IMG/VR virus record: IMGVR_UViG_3300048592_000656
Length of the DNA stretch: 46,127 nucleotides
DNA from: a virus
Direction: 5' to 3' (one strand)
The position numbers and the translations under genes are program-made. Positions 8,163 through 43,052 of the stretch are shown piece by piece (positions within the stretch are counted from its first letter, which is position 1; the number at the start of each line of letters is the position of its first letter). The notes beneath the pieces are model-generated. The model was not told the origin of the DNA and did not search any database. It was given only the letters and a program-made list of their open reading frames with translations.

Positions 8163-8175
8163 CCTGAGATATAAT
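8163..8175 (+). promoter_or_regulatory. Promoter-like 13-mer CCTGAGATATAAT (-10 TATAAT 8170-8175)
   Basis: Intergenic and identical to the 13-mer at 13436-13448. ATG 8187 is 11 nt after the -10. TTGGGT lies 18 nt upstream, and a T5CGT run is at 8138-8145. Confidence 0.6.
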
Positions 8176-8186
8176 TGGAGAATCGT

Positions 8187-10799
8187 ATGGCAACAGTAAA
8201 CGGCGATCCTCGATGCACGTTATGTCCCCTTCACAAGACTGCACAGATCGTGTGTCTTATGGGTCGGGGGCCTCTCCCTTGCAAGGTGATGATCGTAGGC
8301 GAGGCACCTGGTCGAAGGGAGGATGACGTTGGTAAGCCCTTTCAAGGTGCTGCTGGGCGCGTTTTGGACGAGGAGCTTTCGCTCAACGATGTATCGAGGA
8401 ATGACGTTTACATCACCAACACAGCCCGATGTAGACCACCCAGGAATCGAACTCCCAAGGCCGTAGAGATTCGTGAATGCGCCATCTGGATGGAGAAGGA
8501 GTTCAAGGAAGTTCAACCCAAGTTCGTTCTCTTGATGGGTCGAACTGCTTTGAAGACCGTGCCATTCTGGAAAAAAGCGAGCATCACGAAGATCCGAGGC
8601 CAGATCTACGAGCACGATGGCGTCTATTACATGGCTACGTTCCACCCTGCAGCCTGTCTGCCTGGAAGAGATACTGGCCGTGATAAGAAGCGCCCGGCAT
8701 TCCGAATCGACTTGAGTACCTTCTTCAAGTTGGTACGAGACGGGAAACCCCAGGAAACTGAGGGATTGAACGTCCAGATAGTTCGGAATGCCGACACTTT
8801 CAACGAGATGATCGACGACCTTCGAGAATGTCCCGATCCCTCGTATGACTTGGAAACCATGGGCCTTCGACCTCACGTGCCAAAGAAAGACATAGTCCTG
8901 GCTGGCTTTGGTACAGAAAAAGCTCAATGGGTCGTACCCATCAATTATCCCACAGCCGACGGAGGCAACAAGGCCCCGTTCAAGACTCGTCGGTCTAGGA
9001 AAATGGCTTGGGAATTGATCGGCGAAGCAATCCACGGTAAAAAGCTCATTACCCACAATGGCAAGTTCGACGCTTTGTGGGCATATACGAGATATGGCGT
9101 GATGCCGTATATTGGCTTCGACACGATGCTTGCTCACTATGTTCTAGATGAGAATTCACCGCACGCTCTCAAGTACCTTGGCCCTCTCTACTTTGGTATC
9201 CATGATTGGTCATTGGATATGGAAGGCGAATGGTGGCTCAGGTATACGCTCAAGGAATCGTCGAAGTATCTAGCTCAGGATCTTTTCTACACTCGAAAGT
9301 TGAAAGGCATCTTGTATGCTGAGCTAAGAAAAGACCCCGCGCTACTCCGATTCTACCGAACAATCCTTCTGCCTGCTTTCAGGCTCTATGCTCGAGTCGA
9401 AAAGGAAGGTATGTTTCTCAATATGGCCAACTACGAGGCGGCCAAATCTCACGCAATGAATCTTTGGGGTAGGGCATGCCTCGAGGTCAATAGAATCGAC
9501 CCCTCCATCAATTGGGGATCGCCGAAGCAAGTAGCCAAAAAGCTATATGAGGAGTTTGGCTTTCCCATCATCAAGACGACAAAGAAGGGAGCTCCGTCGT
9601 CAGATGAGGCCACACTTACCATCTTGGCTGAACCCCCCGACAAACCCATCCATATGTCTATCACTCGGCCAAATGAAAATCCAAAGATATTCGGCTCGAG
9701 AAAGACTATCGAATGGTGGTCCGGATACAAACACGAGATTCCACAAGCTCTTTTGAATCATCGGGCAGCGAAGAAAATGAAGGAGTTTGTGGATTCGTGG
9801 GAAGAACACCAGCAAGGTGGGCTAATTCACCCGTCTTACAAATTCCTCACCGTCACGGGTCGACTCTCTTGTGAAGGTCCTAACATTCAGCAAACGCCTC
9901 GAGAAAAAATCTTGAGGCAATGCTTTGATGCCCCCTTTCCGTTCATCTTCGTCGAGGCCGACCATTCACAGGTCGAACTCCGAGGCGTAGCGATGTTCGC
10001 TCCCGAGCCTACGATGAAAGCCATCTTCATCGCAGGCGAAGATATTCACAGGATGACTGCTCGAGACATCATTGGGATTGCTAACCCTACAGCCGAAGAC
10101 CGAAAGAAAGCAAAGGCAGTCAACTTTGGTCTCATCTACAGGATGGGCTGGAAAAAGCTACGAATCTACGCTCGTACCAAGTACGGAGTTGAGCTTTCTC
10201 CCGGGGAAGCGAAGAAGATCGTCAAGAATTACTTCCTGAAGTACAATCGACTCCGGTATTACTACGAGAAGCAAGAACGAGTAGCTCGGATGAATGGCTA
10301 TGTCCGTCATCCGTTGGGTCGCGTTCGCCACCTTCCCAATATCTTTTCTGAAGACGAACAAGAGCAGAACGAGGCAATTCGACTTGCCATCAATTCCCCG
10401 GTTCAGGGGTTCGCTTCAGATTACAATCTAGCGGGCATGGTTGACGTCGACCTTGAATTCAATCCCACTTGGGATGGTCCGCTACGAATCGTAGGAACGG
10501 TTCACGACTCGGGGCTGATGTGGGTCCATGCTCTTCATCTCCGTCGAATCCTCCCGAGGGTGAAGGAGATCATGGAGCATCCGCCCCGAGTCAAGAACAA
10601 AATCGGATTTACTCCTACGGTGCCTTGGAAGGTCGATTTCAAGATCGGCCCTTGGGGCGCTGGCAAGGAAATCGATCCGATGGCATGGGAAAATTGGGAA
10701 GTCTTCGTCAAAGACATGAAGGAGTCTGGTCAATGGGAACGGTACAAGCAGGCGAGGGAAGCGAAGAAGATCGACTCGTCGTTTCCCTCAGTCGGATAA
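8187..10799 (+). CDS. polA: Family-4 uracil-DNA-glycosylase domain fused to a family A DNA polymerase with 3'-5' exonuclease
   Basis: UDG4: CTLCPL, GEAPGRREDDVGKPFQGAAGRVLDE, ARCRPPRNRTP, FHPAA. Exo: YDLETMGL, HNGKFD, YLAQDLFY. Pol: ADHSQVELRG (motif A), KAKAVNFGLIYRMG (motif B), GTVHDSG (motif C). ATG 8187 is preferred over the track TTG at 8175. Confidence 0.9.
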   Translation: MATVNGDPRCTLCPLHKTAQIVCLMGRGPLPCKVMIVGEAPGRREDDVGKPFQGAAGRVLDEELSLNDVSRNDVYITNTARCRPPRNRTPKAVEIRECAIWMEKEFKEVQPKFVLLMGRTALKTVPFWKKASITKIRGQIYEHDGVYYMATFHPAACLPGRDTGRDKKRPAFRIDLSTFFKLVRDGKPQETEGLNVQIVRNADTFNEMIDDLRECPDPSYDLETMGLRPHVPKKDIVLAGFGTEKAQWVVPINYPTADGGNKAPFKTRRSRKMAWELIGEAIHGKKLITHNGKFDALWAYTRYGVMPYIGFDTMLAHYVLDENSPHALKYLGPLYFGIHDWSLDMEGEWWLRYTLKESSKYLAQDLFYTRKLKGILYAELRKDPALLRFYRTILLPAFRLYARVEKEGMFLNMANYEAAKSHAMNLWGRACLEVNRIDPSINWGSPKQVAKKLYEEFGFPIIKTTKKGAPSSDEATLTILAEPPDKPIHMSITRPNENPKIFGSRKTIEWWSGYKHEIPQALLNHRAAKKMKEFVDSWEEHQQGGLIHPSYKFLTVTGRLSCEGPNIQQTPREKILRQCFDAPFPFIFVEADHSQVELRGVAMFAPEPTMKAIFIAGEDIHRMTARDIIGIANPTAEDRKKAKAVNFGLIYRMGWKKLRIYARTKYGVELSPGEAKKIVKNYFLKYNRLRYYYEKQERVARMNGYVRHPLGRVRHLPNIFSEDEQEQNEAIRLAINSPVQGFASDYNLAGMVDVDLEFNPTWDGPLRIVGTVHDSGLMWVHALHLRRILPRVKEIMEHPPRVKNKIGFTPTVPWKVDFKIGPWGAGKEIDPMAWENWEVFVKDMKESGQWERYKQAREAKKIDSSFPSVG

Positions 10800-13435: not shown

Positions 13436-13448
13436 CCTGAGATATAAT
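13436..13448 (+). promoter_or_regulatory. Promoter-like 13-mer CCTGAGATATAAT (-10 TATAAT 13443-13448)
   Basis: Intergenic. TTTACG lies 18 nt upstream of the -10. ATG 13456 begins exactly 7 nt after the -10, so a leaderless transcript is predicted. Confidence 0.6.
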
Positions 13449-13455
13449 AACCGAA

Positions 13456-14835
13456 ATGACGAAAATCCCTCTCAAACTACACCAAAAGCTTGGCATAGCC
13501 CGAGCGATGAAGTTTGACGGTTACGCTCTTTATTTCAAACAGGGAGTAGGGAAGACTGCTGCAGCCATTGGTTATCTCGAGGCTAGGCAACCAATCTCTA
13601 CAGTCCTTGTTATTTGTCCGCCGGTCGTGATTGATACATGGCTGGAAGAAATCGAAAAGTTCGCCGACTTTGAGCGAAGGGTGATCCGGTTAGATGACTT
13701 CGGAGCACTGCAGGGAGCTGAGTTTCGATCGCTCGTTAGGAAATCAAGGGGTGCAAAAAACACCCTAATCGTTCTCGCAGGCTATCAGCTCGTAGTCCGA
13801 AGGAAGAACTGGTTCAAGAGACTGCGATGGGACGTCGCGATTGCCGACGAATCCCATATGATTAAGAAACATTCCTCGAAGCAATCTAAAGTCCTATATC
13901 AAATTGGGAAATTGACCCAGTACAAATTGCTTTTGTCTGGGACCCCATTTGATAAGGGCGGTCTCGACGTCTTCGCCCAATACCGATTTGCATGTCCCGA
14001 AGTGTTTGGGACCCATTGGGGTAAATTCACCGAGAGATATGCCAAGAACATCGGGTATGGGTACACTAAGCTTGTGGTCAAAGAGACTAAGAAGGCCAAG
14101 CTTAGGGAAAAGATTCATTCACGGATGATGAGGGTTGAGATCGAGGACGTCGAGCAAATGCCCGAGCTCAATCATTCCGTGAAGCGGTTCGATCTCGAGC
14201 CCGACGTCAAAAAGATATATGATGAGCTCGAGGCTGAAGCTGTGGCAGAATTCAAGGGCAAGATGGCTTTTGCTCCTGTGGTTCTAGCGAAGACTACCCG
14301 TCTGCAACAGATTGCAGGAGGTTTCTTCGTAGACGATAGGAAACAAATTCACAGGATTAGCCGAGCTAAGACTCGGAAGCTAAAAGAACTTCTCCAGCAG
14401 ATCGGGAATGAGAAGGTCGTAATCTACTGTAGATTCAGACCCGAGATAGAAGCAGTTGCCAAGCTTTGCACTGCTATGGGTCTCAATCCCATCCAAATGC
14501 ATGGGGGCATTAACCGAAGAAAGCGAATGCCGCTCCGAAAGCAGTTTGTGCAGGACCGGTCGGCAAAAGTCTTCGTTTCACAGATCCGTGTCGGTGGGAT
14601 CGGGGTTAACGAGCTTCGGGTAGCTCGCATTGGGATTATGTACTCCACGACGCACTCGTGGATTGATTTCGACCAAGCCGTAACACGCCTATACAGGAAA
14701 GGACAGACTAGGAATGTAATCTTCTATCATCTGATTGCCAGAGACACAGTGGATGAAGATATCTACAAGACCGTTAAATCCAAGGGTAAGCGTACACAAG
14801 TCCTTCTTCGGATGGAACAAAGGAGAACCGCTTGA
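13456..14835 (+). CDS. SNF2-family DNA helicase/translocase
   Basis: FKQGVGKTAAAI (motif I), IADESHMIK (DExH), LLLSGTP (motif III), and C-terminal helicase motifs SQIRVGGIGVNEL and QAVTRLYRKGQ. Confidence 0.85.
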   Translation: MTKIPLKLHQKLGIARAMKFDGYALYFKQGVGKTAAAIGYLEARQPISTVLVICPPVVIDTWLEEIEKFADFERRVIRLDDFGALQGAEFRSLVRKSRGAKNTLIVLAGYQLVVRRKNWFKRLRWDVAIADESHMIKKHSSKQSKVLYQIGKLTQYKLLLSGTPFDKGGLDVFAQYRFACPEVFGTHWGKFTERYAKNIGYGYTKLVVKETKKAKLREKIHSRMMRVEIEDVEQMPELNHSVKRFDLEPDVKKIYDELEAEAVAEFKGKMAFAPVVLAKTTRLQQIAGGFFVDDRKQIHRISRAKTRKLKELLQQIGNEKVVIYCRFRPEIEAVAKLCTAMGLNPIQMHGGINRRKRMPLRKQFVQDRSAKVFVSQIRVGGIGVNELRVARIGIMYSTTHSWIDFDQAVTRLYRKGQTRNVIFYHLIARDTVDEDIYKTVKSKGKRTQVLLRMEQRRTA

Positions 14836-40240: not shown

Positions 40241-40629
40241 TACGGCGCCGGAATGATGCGTTCGGCCGGAACCCCGAAGTCGTTGATCAGTTCCTGAGTG
40301 GATTCGTCGTCGTCGGAGATGATGAGGGCATCAGAGTAGTTGATGACGTAGGAGGTCAGTTTCTTGACGAGATCGAAATCGATTATCTCCTGAGCCTGAG
40401 ATATTTCGTATTCGTGGATGAATACGCCAGATTCCCCCCGGAAGACGGATCTCCAGATCGCGTAGAGGAAGTCCTGACAGTTGGGATAATAGTCGAACCA
40501 GGTGTCGTCGCCTGATACGTCGACGGATCCGGATTGTCTCTGAGCGTCTTGATACGTCTTGACGATTTCGTTCGAGAGGGCCTGATTCTCCTCGGATGAA
40601 GTGAAATCGAATCGTTCGTGATCGAGCAT
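40240..40629 (-). CDS. Acidic hypothetical protein (129 aa)
   Basis: ATG 40629 with an AGGAGA SD; the track ORF extends to 40713. MLDHERFDFTSSEENQ...DDDESTQELINDFG. Asp/Glu-rich, no motif. Confidence 0.6.
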   Translation of the reverse strand: MLDHERFDFTSSEENQALSNEIVKTYQDAQRQSGSVDVSGDDTWFDYYPNCQDFLYAIWRSVFRGESGVFIHEYEISQAQEIIDFDLVKKLTSYVINYSDALIISDDDESTQELINDFGVPAERIIPAP

Positions 40630-41137: not shown

Positions 41138-41389
41138 TTACCCTCCAATGATGAAGTTGGATTGTGTGGTGAGGATGTGTACGGTAGCATCCTCAGATCC
41201 CGGATCGATCAGAGCGTTGACGGTGCCCTGATCGTTGAATTCGATCCTGAGGAGATACATTTCAGAGTCGGGGGACCTGAATATCTCGTATGAGGAGATT
41301 CCCCATTCGGGATTGAGCTTGACGGGATGAGATTCAGTCCAGTACGCGATACGTTCGATCGCTTGCTGGATCGTATCGTTTCGTTCCAT
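41138..41389 (-). CDS. Hypothetical protein (83 aa), first gene of a leftward two-gene operon
   Basis: ORF track. GGGGG SD-like sequence upstream, and the promoter-like motif 43 nt upstream. Confidence 0.6.
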   Translation of the reverse strand: MERNDTIQQAIERIAYWTESHPVKLNPEWGISSYEIFRSPDSEMYLLRIEFNDQGTVNALIDPGSEDATVHILTTQSNFIIGG

Positions 41390-41431
41390 GATGAGACCCC
41401 CTTCGCGCGTCGTTCGTTCGACGCGATACGA

Positions 41432-41444
41432 ACGATATCTCAGG
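41432..41444 (-). promoter_or_regulatory. Promoter-like motif CCTGAGATATCGT (minus strand)
   Basis: The minus strand reads caCCTGAGATATCGTtcgtatcgcgtcgaacgaacgacgcg. Its downstream end is 43 nt from ATG 41389. Confidence 0.55.
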
Positions 41445-41465
41445 TGTAATCAAAAGTAAATATCC

Positions 41466-41484
41466 TGAGAAAATTATTTTCTCA
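41466..41484. promoter_or_regulatory. Perfect 19-bp palindrome TGAGAAAAT-T-ATTTTCTCA (operator candidate)
   Basis: 9-bp arms around one central base. Lies in the divergent region between the leftward (41432) and rightward (41603) promoter-like motifs. The half-site resembles the TTCTCA iteron core. Confidence 0.6.
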
Positions 41485-41602
41485 AGCAGGCCCCATCTGT
41501 GCGGGCCTGACTAGTCCTGACCCTAAGAGGCTCTCTCTCATGGGCGGCCTGACCTGACCTGCGGAGAATTGTGGGAGAACAAGTACCCACATCCTGCTCA
41601 GG

Positions 41603-41615
41603 CCTGTGATATAAT
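41603..41615 (+). promoter_or_regulatory. Promoter-like motif CCTGTGATATAAT (-10 TATAAT 41610-41615)
   Basis: Rightward, in the divergent intergenic region. ATG 41624 begins 8 nt after the -10. Confidence 0.55.
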
Positions 41616-41623
41616 ACCTGTCG

Positions 41624-41908
41624 ATGGCCAGATCTCTCGACCTTACGATCCGCACCTGTCCTGAGATGCCCCTTTCTCAGGTGGGCTTGCCGGATAACGC
41701 GCGTAAGATTCAGGTGCCGGCTCCTCAGGCCCCGCACCCCCAGGCGGAATCATTCTCAGCCGTTCTCACGCGCGCAAGCTCGTTCTCGGTTCACAGTCCA
41801 TTCTCGCGCTCCCTCGTTCTCGGAAAACCTGACCTGCCTTCAGGTAAAAGACTATTCTCGGTAGAGCCCCTATGCGAAACCCGTGCCAACAATCTTAAAC
41901 TGGACTGA
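41624..41908 (+). CDS. Doubtful ORF (94 aa) overlying iteron cluster 2
   Basis: ORF track. A leaderless-type ATG sits 8 nt after a -10. However the product is low-complexity Pro/Ser-rich, and its repeated FS dipeptides come from the TTCTC repeats. Confidence 0.25.
   Translation: MARSLDLTIRTCPEMPLSQVGLPDNARKIQVPAPQAPHPQAESFSAVLTRASSFSVHSPFSRSLVLGKPDLPSGKRLFSVEPLCETRANNLKLD
41752..41861 (+). repeat. Iteron cluster 2: six direct (A/G)TTCTC(A/G)(C/G) copies
   Basis: Copies start at 41752, 41762, 41782, 41800, 41816 and 41854, in the same orientation as cluster 1. Confidence 0.8.
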
Positions 41909-41933
41909 AAAATTATTATCACCGGATAAATAA

Positions 41934-41946
41934 CCTGTGATATCGT
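41934..41946 (+). promoter_or_regulatory. Promoter-like motif CCTGTGATATCGT heading a 520-nt ORF-free stretch
   Basis: Same motif class as the two leftward copies. The next convincing CDS starts at 42466. Confidence 0.45.
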
Positions 41947-42465
41947 TACGACGATCGAATAACGTGATCGTAGGACTCAGGAAGCTGATACGACGTTCGC
42001 GTTCGGGAGAATCGCCCTCATACAGGCTTCTCTCCCCTCGTTACGATCTTTGACACCACTGACGTACCCACGCTTCGTCGCGCCTCTCAGGATACGACCG
42101 GGGCTAGCGAACCCCGTTACGATCTAAGAGTCGACGATGGCCCACGTCAGTGACAGCCGGTACGCGATAACGCGATACCCCGACGTTTCCGCCCACGCTC
42201 CCAAGCTCCCGCACCTCACTACGCAGCGTTCACGTAGATGAGATAAACGTCGCGCAGTCATCGCCTCTTACGCTACCCCATACACGCTGGAAGTTTCCTT
42301 TCTTCTTCCCCATCGACGACGAGATGAGAAGACAGTTCTCGCTCGTAGTCGAAACTGAGGGGCACGTTCTTCACAGTCTGGTAACCCGGACACCGAGTCC
42401 GTAGCCCCTTAGTTAGCGGGACTTGACCTACCCGCTCTGAAGATGACAGGTCAATCGAAAGGGGA

Positions 42466-42801
42466 ATGAAGATGGAAGACAATGCCAAGGAAACCACCGA
42501 CAAGGTGATGAAGGATTCCGCTCTCTGCGAGAACGAGATCCTTCTCATCAACGAGATGCGCGGAAGACACGCACTCACGATGCGACATCAGGGAAAGGGG
42601 AAACCCACCTCCCTCCTCGTCACGATCCGAGTCACGGTCTTCCCCCACGCAAATCAGGACCCGGTAGCGACATTCAGCTCGTTCTTTCAGAACAATCTGG
42701 TTCTCGCTGCCATCGGTGATCCCCGGATCGCAACGAACTCGAGGCTCCGTCCCGAGATCGAGATCGTGAAGGTGGGGACGGCAAGGAAGACTGACCGATG
42801 A
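42466..42801 (+). CDS. Hypothetical protein (111 aa)
   Basis: ORF track. AAGGGGA SD. No motif. Confidence 0.55.
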   Translation: MKMEDNAKETTDKVMKDSALCENEILLINEMRGRHALTMRHQGKGKPTSLLVTIRVTVFPHANQDPVATFSSFFQNNLVLAAIGDPRIATNSRLRPEIEIVKVGTARKTDR

Positions 42802-43052
42802 AGTCAATCCAAGCCGACGACTACCCGAAGAGGGAGGGTCGATACCCCATCGATGCATACGGATTCATCGTCCGATGCAAAGAGGAACTCAACGACGATC
42901 AAGCGGAGATCCTCACCGAGGAGATCGAAGAAGCTGTTTCAGATGCGTTCTACAACTTCAAAAGAAGCGTGGAACACATCGGCAAGCAGCACAACCTCGA
43001 TCTCAAGGTCACGATCGATGCCGGTGACAACATCGAAATGGAGCTCTTCTAA
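42798..43052 (+). CDS. Hypothetical acidic protein (84 aa)
   Basis: ORF track. 4-nt overlap upstream and a 1-nt overlap downstream. Confidence 0.6.
   Translation: MKSIQADDYPKREGRYPIDAYGFIVRCKEELNDDQAEILTEEIEEAVSDAFYNFKRSVEHIGKQHNLDLKVTIDAGDNIEMELF

Follow-up and report, generated by a model that had tools for sequence, protein, structure and literature searches.

A conserved RNA fold in the gene-free stretch before the first early gene of a novel tailed phage, probably a structured 5' leader

Introduction

The virus record IMGVR_UViG_3300048592_000656, a DNA of 46,127 nucleotides (the window, as the whole analysed stretch is called here), contains about half a kilobase at 41934-42465 that lies between a promoter-like motif and the next rightward gene. 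What this stretch is, and why a phage should keep it, is the question addressed here. A sequence-only reading had proposed a candidate non-coding RNA or structured leader, on the strength of a missing gene and of a few repeats and complementary segments.

Genome context and the divergent region

The window looks like the complete genome of a novel tailed phage. Pfam recognised in it a family A DNA polymerase fused to a uracil-DNA glycosylase domain, a RepB-primase/AAA_25 helicase, an SNF2 helicase, a Gp13-like capsid protein, a tail tube protein and a large terminase. A phage collection, searched with both DNA and protein, returned no relatives; the best match of the large terminase was 38% identical. 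Rightward genes run from 42466 through the window end and on to about 15206, and leftward genes from 41389 down to 15284; therefore 41390-42465 is the sole point of divergence. This divergence region of 1076 nt holds no credible gene, and the stretch under study is its right half.

Several short motifs are concentrated in and around the region. Four of the five genome copies of ACGCGATA, all three of CGTTACGA and three of the eight of CCTGACCT fall within 41340-42180, nearly all of those in the divergent region on the + strand; the CGTTACGA and ACGCGATA copies share one strand, except one ACGCGATA copy. Five 8-mers are present at least three times in 41390-42465, against 0.12 in shuffles. True iterons lie outside the leader, at 41752-41861, and an AT-rich dip at 41870-41960 adjoins it.

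The left half of the control region forms a conserved module in the relatives described below (L012 1402-2210; L011 2883-3156), where it carries CCTGACC repeats, GTTCTCAG-type sites and a TATAAT promoter. In the window it contains a 94-aa ORF (41624-41908) which is probably not a gene. The ORF starts 8 nt past a perfect TGnTATAAT promoter (41603-41615), which is a leaderless geometry; GTTCTC iterons lie under it and it is open in L011 (92 aa). Several 1-nt DNA indels separate the two versions, the proteins barely align and the codon score is about 0.

Coding capacity of the stretch

It had been claimed that no ORF with a Shine-Dalgarno sequence is present in 41934-42465, and indeed neither strand has a credible ORF. 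On the + strand no ORF with a start codon exceeds 38 aa, and the longest begins at a GTG that is part of the promoter motif. Stop-to-stop pieces of both strands score about 0 bits per codon, compared with 0.15-0.52 for the real small genes of this phage, and they match nothing in Pfam or PHROGs. A tRNA search of the stretch found none. Hidden ORFs and an altered genetic code were considered and rejected. The antisense ORF 42273-42578 was rejected as a gene, having a codon score of about 0 and not being open in L011, and so was the antisense ORF 42451-42858, which is almost entirely antisense to the 109-aa gene that follows the stretch.

A small upstream ORF at AUG 42443 was also rejected: this AUG is out of frame with the gene in the window, and L011 and L012 have it in frame. 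It belongs to the invariant GAAGAUGACAGG and opens an 8-codon frame (42443-42469), which in the window runs into ATG 42466 with an AUGA overlap. No Shine-Dalgarno sequence of its own precedes it, and it is probably as RNA that it is conserved.

The promoter-like motif

The 5' limit of the stretch is set by the following feature.

41934-41946, + strand: promoter-like motif CCTGTGATATCGT, with a TGn-extended -10 element TATCGT at 41941-41946

The genome bears out the promoter-like character which had been ascribed to it. Exact CCTGnGATAT occurs at seven sites genome-wide, six of them co-oriented with the following gene, including 8163 (before the polymerase), 13436 (before SNF2) and 41435 (before a leftward 83-aa gene); the seventh, at 40395 on the + strand, lies inside a leftward 129-aa gene on the opposite strand. 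Between the 41934 copy and the leftward copy at 41431-41445 only one position in 15 differs. The predicted transcription start is at about 41952-41954. In L011 the motif is kept together with a downstream CGTTACG..CGATCGAAT; in L012 it is kept in part only, which leaves an uncertainty of about 20 nt in the position of the 5' end. The upstream sequence 41624-41908 has an SCI of 0.36 and a z of -0.24 between window and L011, that is, no conserved structure 5' of the motif. Conserved structure thus begins at the 41934 motif and not upstream of it, which agrees with a transcript start at that promoter.

Internal promoters at TTGACA 42050 and TTGACC 42424 were rejected, as neither has a -10 element. 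Elsewhere in the genome 7 nt lie between the end of CCTGAGATATAAT and the ATG of the SNF2 helicase gene (13436-13458), and 11 nt in the case of the polymerase gene (8163-8189). Such spacing suggests mRNAs with no leader or almost none, a hint as to the type of host.

Folding and repeats in the single sequence

Folding energies were read against the background of the genome. For 49 sense-strand 300-nt windows taken genome-wide, the mean z relative to dinucleotide shuffles is -1.76 (sd 1.73, 5th percentile -4.8), and coding windows go down to -4 to -7, for example -5 to -7 near 1000 and 37000. Either a general structuring of the mRNAs or further RNA elements may lie behind this genome-wide excess. 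For the stretch itself z is -5.04 (+ strand) and -2.42 (- strand), and local 300-nt windows at the leader range from -2.6 to -4.6. Shuffle-controlled folding had been suggested as a check; the + strand does fall below its shuffles, but with such a background the value is weak evidence. Repeated 8-mers number 10 in the stretch, compared with 3.6 in shuffles (p ~0.02), and one in six other pieces of the genome equals that. A 9-bp inverted repeat, such as had been noticed here, is expected about 0.5 times by chance in 532 nt. Since the genome folds better than shuffles nearly everywhere and repeats are mildly enriched, the single sequence is only suggestive. A CsrA-type GGA sponge was rejected, GGA being not enriched as judged by eye.

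Relatives of the locus

Near-identical contigs (L003, at 99.5%, and L008-L010) carry one SNP in the region, 42388 G to A in L003, which turns a G-U pair of hairpin P6 into A-U. In JGI sample 3300048838 the assembly breaks within the region: L003 and L008, which are 99.5% and 98% identical to the window, overlap only at window 41854-41980, and the break may come from strain mixing at the control region.

More diverged relatives were scarce. In IMG/VR the large terminase, the primase-helicase and three small proteins led only to distant or non-syntenic loci (L001, L002, L004), and a neighbouring protein and conserved RNA blocks matched nothing in scans of metagenome, viral and genome contigs. 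L005, whose terminase is 88% identical, and L008 were discarded as informative relatives, as they end short of the region; L006 and L007 were discarded because their 850-nt gene-free gap is unrelated to the leader.

Two lineages were found to be informative. The first was reached with the product of the CpG-rich gene near 39.2-39.6 kb as query, which yielded a 65%-identical protein on L011, a 5.3-kb ENA contig from a sample that also holds a contig bearing an 88%-identical terminase. In reverse orientation L011 can be aligned to window 41693-42474, with 69% identity over 803 columns, and homologues of the flanking genes show 36-62% amino-acid identity. It has a 542-nt gap without a called gene directly before a homologue (50% identical) of the 109-aa protein. 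The second lineage was reached by an exhaustive profile search with the 109-aa protein family, where a word-index search had found only the query itself; it gave one further homologue (E = 4e-13, 41% identity) on the Logan contigs L012 and L013. L012 has a 1.33-kb gene-free zone before this gene and the layout is as in the window. BLAST of the window against L012 finds only the leader blocks, one short gene piece and, at the far end of the contig, the CpG-rich gene region.

About 540 gene-free nucleotides precede the homologue of the downstream gene in both L011 and L012/L013, and the leaders of L011 and L012 are likewise without coding capacity. The leader is conserved at least as well as the flanking genes. 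Replacement by ordinary genes in relatives had been named as an outcome that would count against a functional RNA; in L011 and L012/L013 the region is conserved and not so replaced. The 109-aa protein itself has no match in Pfam or PHROGs, and its AlphaFold model, with a pLDDT of 55, is too poor for a structural search; PHROGs assigned no function to the early genes.

Covariation and strand preference

All covariation counts were made on sequence-only alignments (MAFFT for window-L011). When the minimum-energy structure of the window was tested in L011, 23 of 29 doubly changed pairs were still canonical, compared with about 40% in slid controls; the reverse test gave 19 of 30. The same pair of genomes served as its own control: 22 of 28 such pairs are kept in the leader, versus 17 of 50 in four control regions (three coding regions and the 41624-41908 stretch). 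The leader has an SCI of 0.71 and an alignment-shuffle z of about -9.3 to -9.9, where the four control regions have SCI values of 0.36-0.58 and z from +0.7 to -5.8.

With all three lineages RNAalifold gives 103 consensus pairs, of which 39 are changed on both sides yet paired. In this consensus 92% of cells are paired, versus 42-46% when partners are slid, and the 39 doubly changed pairs compare with 14.9 +/- 3.0 in shuffles (0 of 500 reach the count) and 4-8 when slid; the consensus was derived from the same alignment, and three lineages are too few for a formal test of the R-scape type. Singly changed pairs in strict column register (window-L011) number 8 kept versus 24 broken, the broken ones being due in part to one-column slips visible in helix P2e and in the 42172-76 helix. 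Folded independently, the window, L011 and L012 show homologous helices. Covariation in related phages, named beforehand as the way to check the proposal, is therefore present in two diverged relatives.

These data bear on two readings in which no RNA is involved. In the first the stretch would be a non-functional spacer or the remnant of a decayed gene, its structure coming from the general folding tendency of the genome; the low background z, the still lower values of coding windows and the unexceptional repeat content of the stretch alone agree with that. Its conservation, the invariant blocks of 23-33 nt, compensatory changes far above those of matched control regions and the lack of any protein-family remnant in Pfam or PHROGs speak so clearly the other way that this reading is hardly credible.

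In the second the stretch would act as DNA, be it a site of replication or packaging, a signal for single-strand initiation or a set of arrayed protein sites, and its hairpins would form in single-stranded DNA. That CGTTACGA (3 copies) and ACGCGATA (5 copies) are almost confined to 41340-42180 and mostly on the same strand fits such an element, as do the iteron arrays and AT-rich dip next door, and the - strand, too, folds above its controls (z -6.6 for window-L011). The + strand is stronger (z -9.3), G-U cells outnumber A-C cells by 23 to 7, and nested helices span up to about 170 nt, all of which points to RNA. Moreover the repeated motifs are strands of conserved helices: within 41934-42465 repeats are few (8-mer p ~0.02) and map onto RNA helix strands. 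A DNA element is thus very unlikely. Taken as a whole, the stretch is very probably a selected RNA structure on the + strand.

Architecture of the leader

The structure consists of a series of domains. Three blocks of its sequence (42036-42058, 42283-42311 and 42421-42454) are identical or nearly so, with free divergence between them. The 5' part comprises the following features.

41961-42003 and 42005-42036, + strand: two hairpins of domain I (domain 41953-42048), found in independent folds of the three lineages with differing sequences
41953-41957 / 42044-42048, + strand: possible closing helix of domain I, GAUCG / CGAUC, invariant
42036-42058, + strand: conserved block CTCGTTACGATCTTTGACACCAC, identical in window and L011, containing the first CGTTACGATCT copy

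The closing helix of domain I, being invariant, offers no test by covariation. The core CGATCwTTGACA of block 42036-42058 is kept in L012 too. Domain II follows directly.

42057-42152, + strand: domain II, a 96-nt irregular hairpin with pair probabilities of at least 0.8
42057-65/42144-52, + strand: helix P2a of domain II
42075-80/42132-37, + strand: helix P2b, UCGUCG/CGACGA in the window, GGGA/UUCC in L011, UUGGA/UCCAA in L012
42084-87/42127-30, + strand: helix P2c of domain II
42090-93/42122-25, + strand: helix P2d of domain II
42099-103/42112-16, + strand: helix P2e, CGGGG/CCCCG in the window, CCGGA/UCCGG in L011, CAUCC/GGAUG in L012

P2a is formed by CACUGACGU/ACGUCAGUG in the window, by CACCAACGA/UCGUUGGUG in L011 and by CCCGUCGCGUA/UACGUGA..CGGG in L012. 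In domain II (consensus helices 2-5 and 7) 15 pairs are changed on both sides; P2a, P2b and P2e differ in each lineage and the apical strands CUCAGGAUACGACC ... GUUACGAUC are conserved. The three nested complementary pairs drawn by the sequence-only reading are P2a, P2b and P2e, and in the relatives these stems change their sequence and keep their pairing. Of the positions given for them, tcgtcg 42075-42080 with cgacga 42133-42138 is exact. For cactgacgt with acgtcagtg 42144-42152 the pairing is present, but the first arm is at 42057-42065 and not 42056-42064; likewise cgggg 42099-42103 does pair with ccccg, which however lies at 42112-42116 and not 42111-42115. The two copies of CGTTACGATCT also exist, the first at 42039-42049 as reported and the second at 42115-42125, one position beyond the reported 42114-42124. 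One copy is a strand of the possible closing helix of domain I, the other the 3' strand of P2c/P2d.

42163-42174, + strand: small hairpin CGCG-AUAA-CGCG, in the tandem CGCGATA copies; RNAalifold consensus helix 8
42181-42252, + strand: domain III, in which P3a encloses hairpin P3b with the invariant loop CAGCGUUCA
42181-88/42245-52, + strand: P3a, CGACGUUU/AAACGUCG in the window, CGUCGUC/GACGACG in L011, two double changes
42215-23/42233-42, + strand: P3b (helix 11), CUACG/CGUAG in the window, CUUUCUCACG/CGUGAGGGAG in L012

The tandem CGCGATA was correctly noticed, with copies at 42163-42169 and 42171-42177. The hairpin has one C-G to U-A exchange in L012; its support is weaker than that of the other helices because the minimum-energy fold of the window uses its bases otherwise. 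Farther 3' lie the following features.

42283-42311, + strand: near-invariant block, about 30 nt identical in L011 and 26 of 27 in L012, where overall identity is 69% or far less
42293-42311, + strand: pyrimidine tract UUUCCUUUCUUCUUCCCC, the anti-Shine-Dalgarno strand of helix P4
42313-42352, + strand: hairpin P5, probability at least 0.86
42353-42414, + strand: hairpin P6, with an 11-bp base 42353-63/42404-14 and an apical stem 42376-81/42386-91
42415-20/42431-36, + strand: hairpin P7 (helix 18), two double changes
42423-29 / 42448-54, + strand: probable H-type pseudoknot, UUGACCU of the P7 loop with AGGUCAA, read by eye

At the position of P5 the relatives have shorter hairpins, UCGGC/GUCGA and CCGG/CCGG in L011 and GAC/GUC and CCCC/GGGG in L012. 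In the base of P6 (helix 16) 7 of 11 pairs are changed on both sides and still paired, and its apical stem reads GUCUGG/CCGGAC in the window and GCUCGG/CCGAGC in L011. Within the pseudoknot arms L012 departs at just one internal pair, where A-U has become G-C and pairing is preserved. An H-type pseudoknot is probable in 42415-42454, just upstream of the Shine-Dalgarno sequence.

Relation to the downstream gene

42457-42478, + strand: Shine-Dalgarno sequence (42458-42465) and start region of the 109-aa gene, with candidate start codons at 42466 and 42472

In the predicted folds the 3' domain is closed on this gene. Helix P4 (42294-42311 / 42461-42478) covers the G-run of the Shine-Dalgarno sequence, both candidate AUGs and the first codons, with a pair probability of at least 0.9 and a duplex energy of -24.7 kcal/mol, a value that 1.7% of shuffled leaders attain, as do 1.7% of other genome pieces. 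Pairing of the C-run with the G-run also appears in the independent folds of L011 and L012, where the flanking pairs differ. P4 has no covariation of its own because the anti-Shine-Dalgarno tract is invariant. The predicted accessibility of this ribosome-binding site is 0.29, the 14th lowest of 64 candidate starts and not exceptional in the genome.

No intrinsic terminator was found on the + strand within the region up to the next gene. Of the two forms in which the proposal had been made, non-coding RNA or structured leader, both agree with a gene-free locus in two relatives and with covarying stems; the leader fits better than a free-standing small RNA because there is no terminator and the predicted helix that closes the 3' domain includes the ribosome-binding site of the gene.

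It could nevertheless be argued that the locus gives rise to a free-standing or processed large RNA which acts in trans, for instance as bait for a defence or RNA-binding protein of the host, or by self-assembly into an ornate RNA of the ROOL and GOLLD type, its place before an early gene being incidental. About 510 nt with at least 10 conserved helices and several invariant unpaired blocks exceed what is needed to hide a ribosome-binding site, domains I-III have no evident tie to the start codon, and large ornate phage-associated RNAs do exist (PMC12286853, PMC5737381). On the other hand, no terminator or other 3' boundary precedes the gene, the 3' domain is closed on its ribosome-binding site in the folds of all three lineages, and the same gene family lies directly downstream in all three. 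Nor does Rfam match the locus to ROOL, GOLLD, OLE or HEARO. We consider a trans-acting RNA unlikely.

The search of Rfam was a wide one. Rfam 15 at gathering scores has no match in the whole window; 41300-42600 at E up to 10 gives only a miRNA and a snoRNA at 12-15 bits, which is chance level; and the leaders of L011 and L012 at E up to 1 have no match. The scan of this kind that had been recommended thus turned up no described RNA family, be it a riboswitch, T-box, thermometer, ribozyme or phage sRNA, and the leader is best filed as a new RNA family of the structured-leader kind.

Discussion

The present study indicates that the stretch is a cis-acting 5' leader of the rightward early operon, about 510 nt long, and we put the probability of this at roughly 0.7. 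Transcription from 41934 and co-transcription with the gene are what we infer from the conserved promoter-like motif and the missing terminator. A multi-domain RNA comprising 41953-42478 of the + strand would be transcribed from the 41934 motif, and possibly also from 41603. It would present in order the two 5' hairpins, domain II, domain III and a 3' domain of three hairpins and a pseudoknot. Folded in this way, the leader could keep the ribosome-binding site closed by laying the tract 42293-42311 on the Shine-Dalgarno sequence and start (42466/42472), and translation of the first early gene would then require the closing helix to be opened. That this anti-Shine-Dalgarno helix does gate translation of the first early gene is a prediction from folding to which we would give even odds. 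Candidates for the opener are a protein that binds the invariant single-stranded blocks, a cleavage of the RNase III type in the 23-33-bp stems of domain II and P6, and the order of co-transcriptional folding.

Few RNAs of bacteria and phages exceed about 400 nt and have many conserved helices; to our knowledge, each one whose role was worked out has proved to be a ribozyme, a riboswitch-like sensor or a self-assembling particle. It is conceivable, though we hold it doubtful, that the leader represents a new class of large ornate phage RNA (about 0.5 kb) in which domains I-III have a function of their own. In that case control of the downstream gene would be just one output, and the RNA could for example bind or titrate a host factor (RNA polymerase, Rho, an RNase, a defence sensor) or enter a higher-order RNA assembly.

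The cis-acting leader, as we read it, sits at the first step of the phage early programme, and it could show how early expression is timed or protected in an uncultured lineage. Its helices are mapped, and with its invariant blocks and a candidate anti-Shine-Dalgarno switch it is a defined RNA that can be tested without a cultured host. More generally, ORF-free gaps in singleton metagenomic phages can be resolved given one or two diverged contigs.

Among known systems, ROOL and GOLLD are large ornate non-coding RNAs associated with phages and prophages (PMC5737381, PMC12286853). The leader resembles them in having several hundred nucleotides and many covarying helices and in being phage-associated. 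It differs in being joined to a ribosome-binding site and in having no Rfam match, whereas those RNAs are free-standing, often near tRNAs, and homo-oligomeric.

A likeness in position is offered by early leaders of well-studied phages, although the present element is several times larger and has none of the sequences that define them or the pseudoknot operators treated below. In the early leader of T7 the tandem promoters A1-A3 are followed by an untranslated stretch of several hundred bases, with the RNase III site R0.3 ahead of gene 0.3. Here too tandem promoter-like sites (41603, 41934) are followed by a long untranslated stretch with long stems and by the first early gene; however, the T7 leader has one processing hairpin and no conserved multi-domain fold, and no sequence relation was found. 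The N leader of phage lambda, of about 220 nt, contains nutL (boxA, boxB) and an RNase III-sensitive structure controlling translation of N, and the structure near its ribosome-binding site limits translation until a factor or processing acts. Both are long untranslated leaders which run from an early promoter to the first early gene and carry structure beside the ribosome-binding site. Unlike that of lambda, the present leader has about 510 nt, at least 10 helices and a probable pseudoknot, and no N-like protein was identified; a lambda-type nut boxA (CGCTCTTA-like) is not conserved, the only boxA-like string, CGCTCTG at 42433-42439, being CGCCCTG in L011 and CACCCTG in L012 as read by eye.

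The 3' end of the leader, finally, recalls the pseudoknot operators at ribosome-binding sites, such as the T4 gene 32 leader, E. coli rpsO/S15 and the alpha-operon/S4, which have 40-120 nt and an autoregulatory protein. Those operators bind a known autoregulatory protein and the present leader is about five times larger, but it shares with them a probable pseudoknot (42415-42454) 3-10 nt upstream of the Shine-Dalgarno sequence and a start region that is predicted to be paired.
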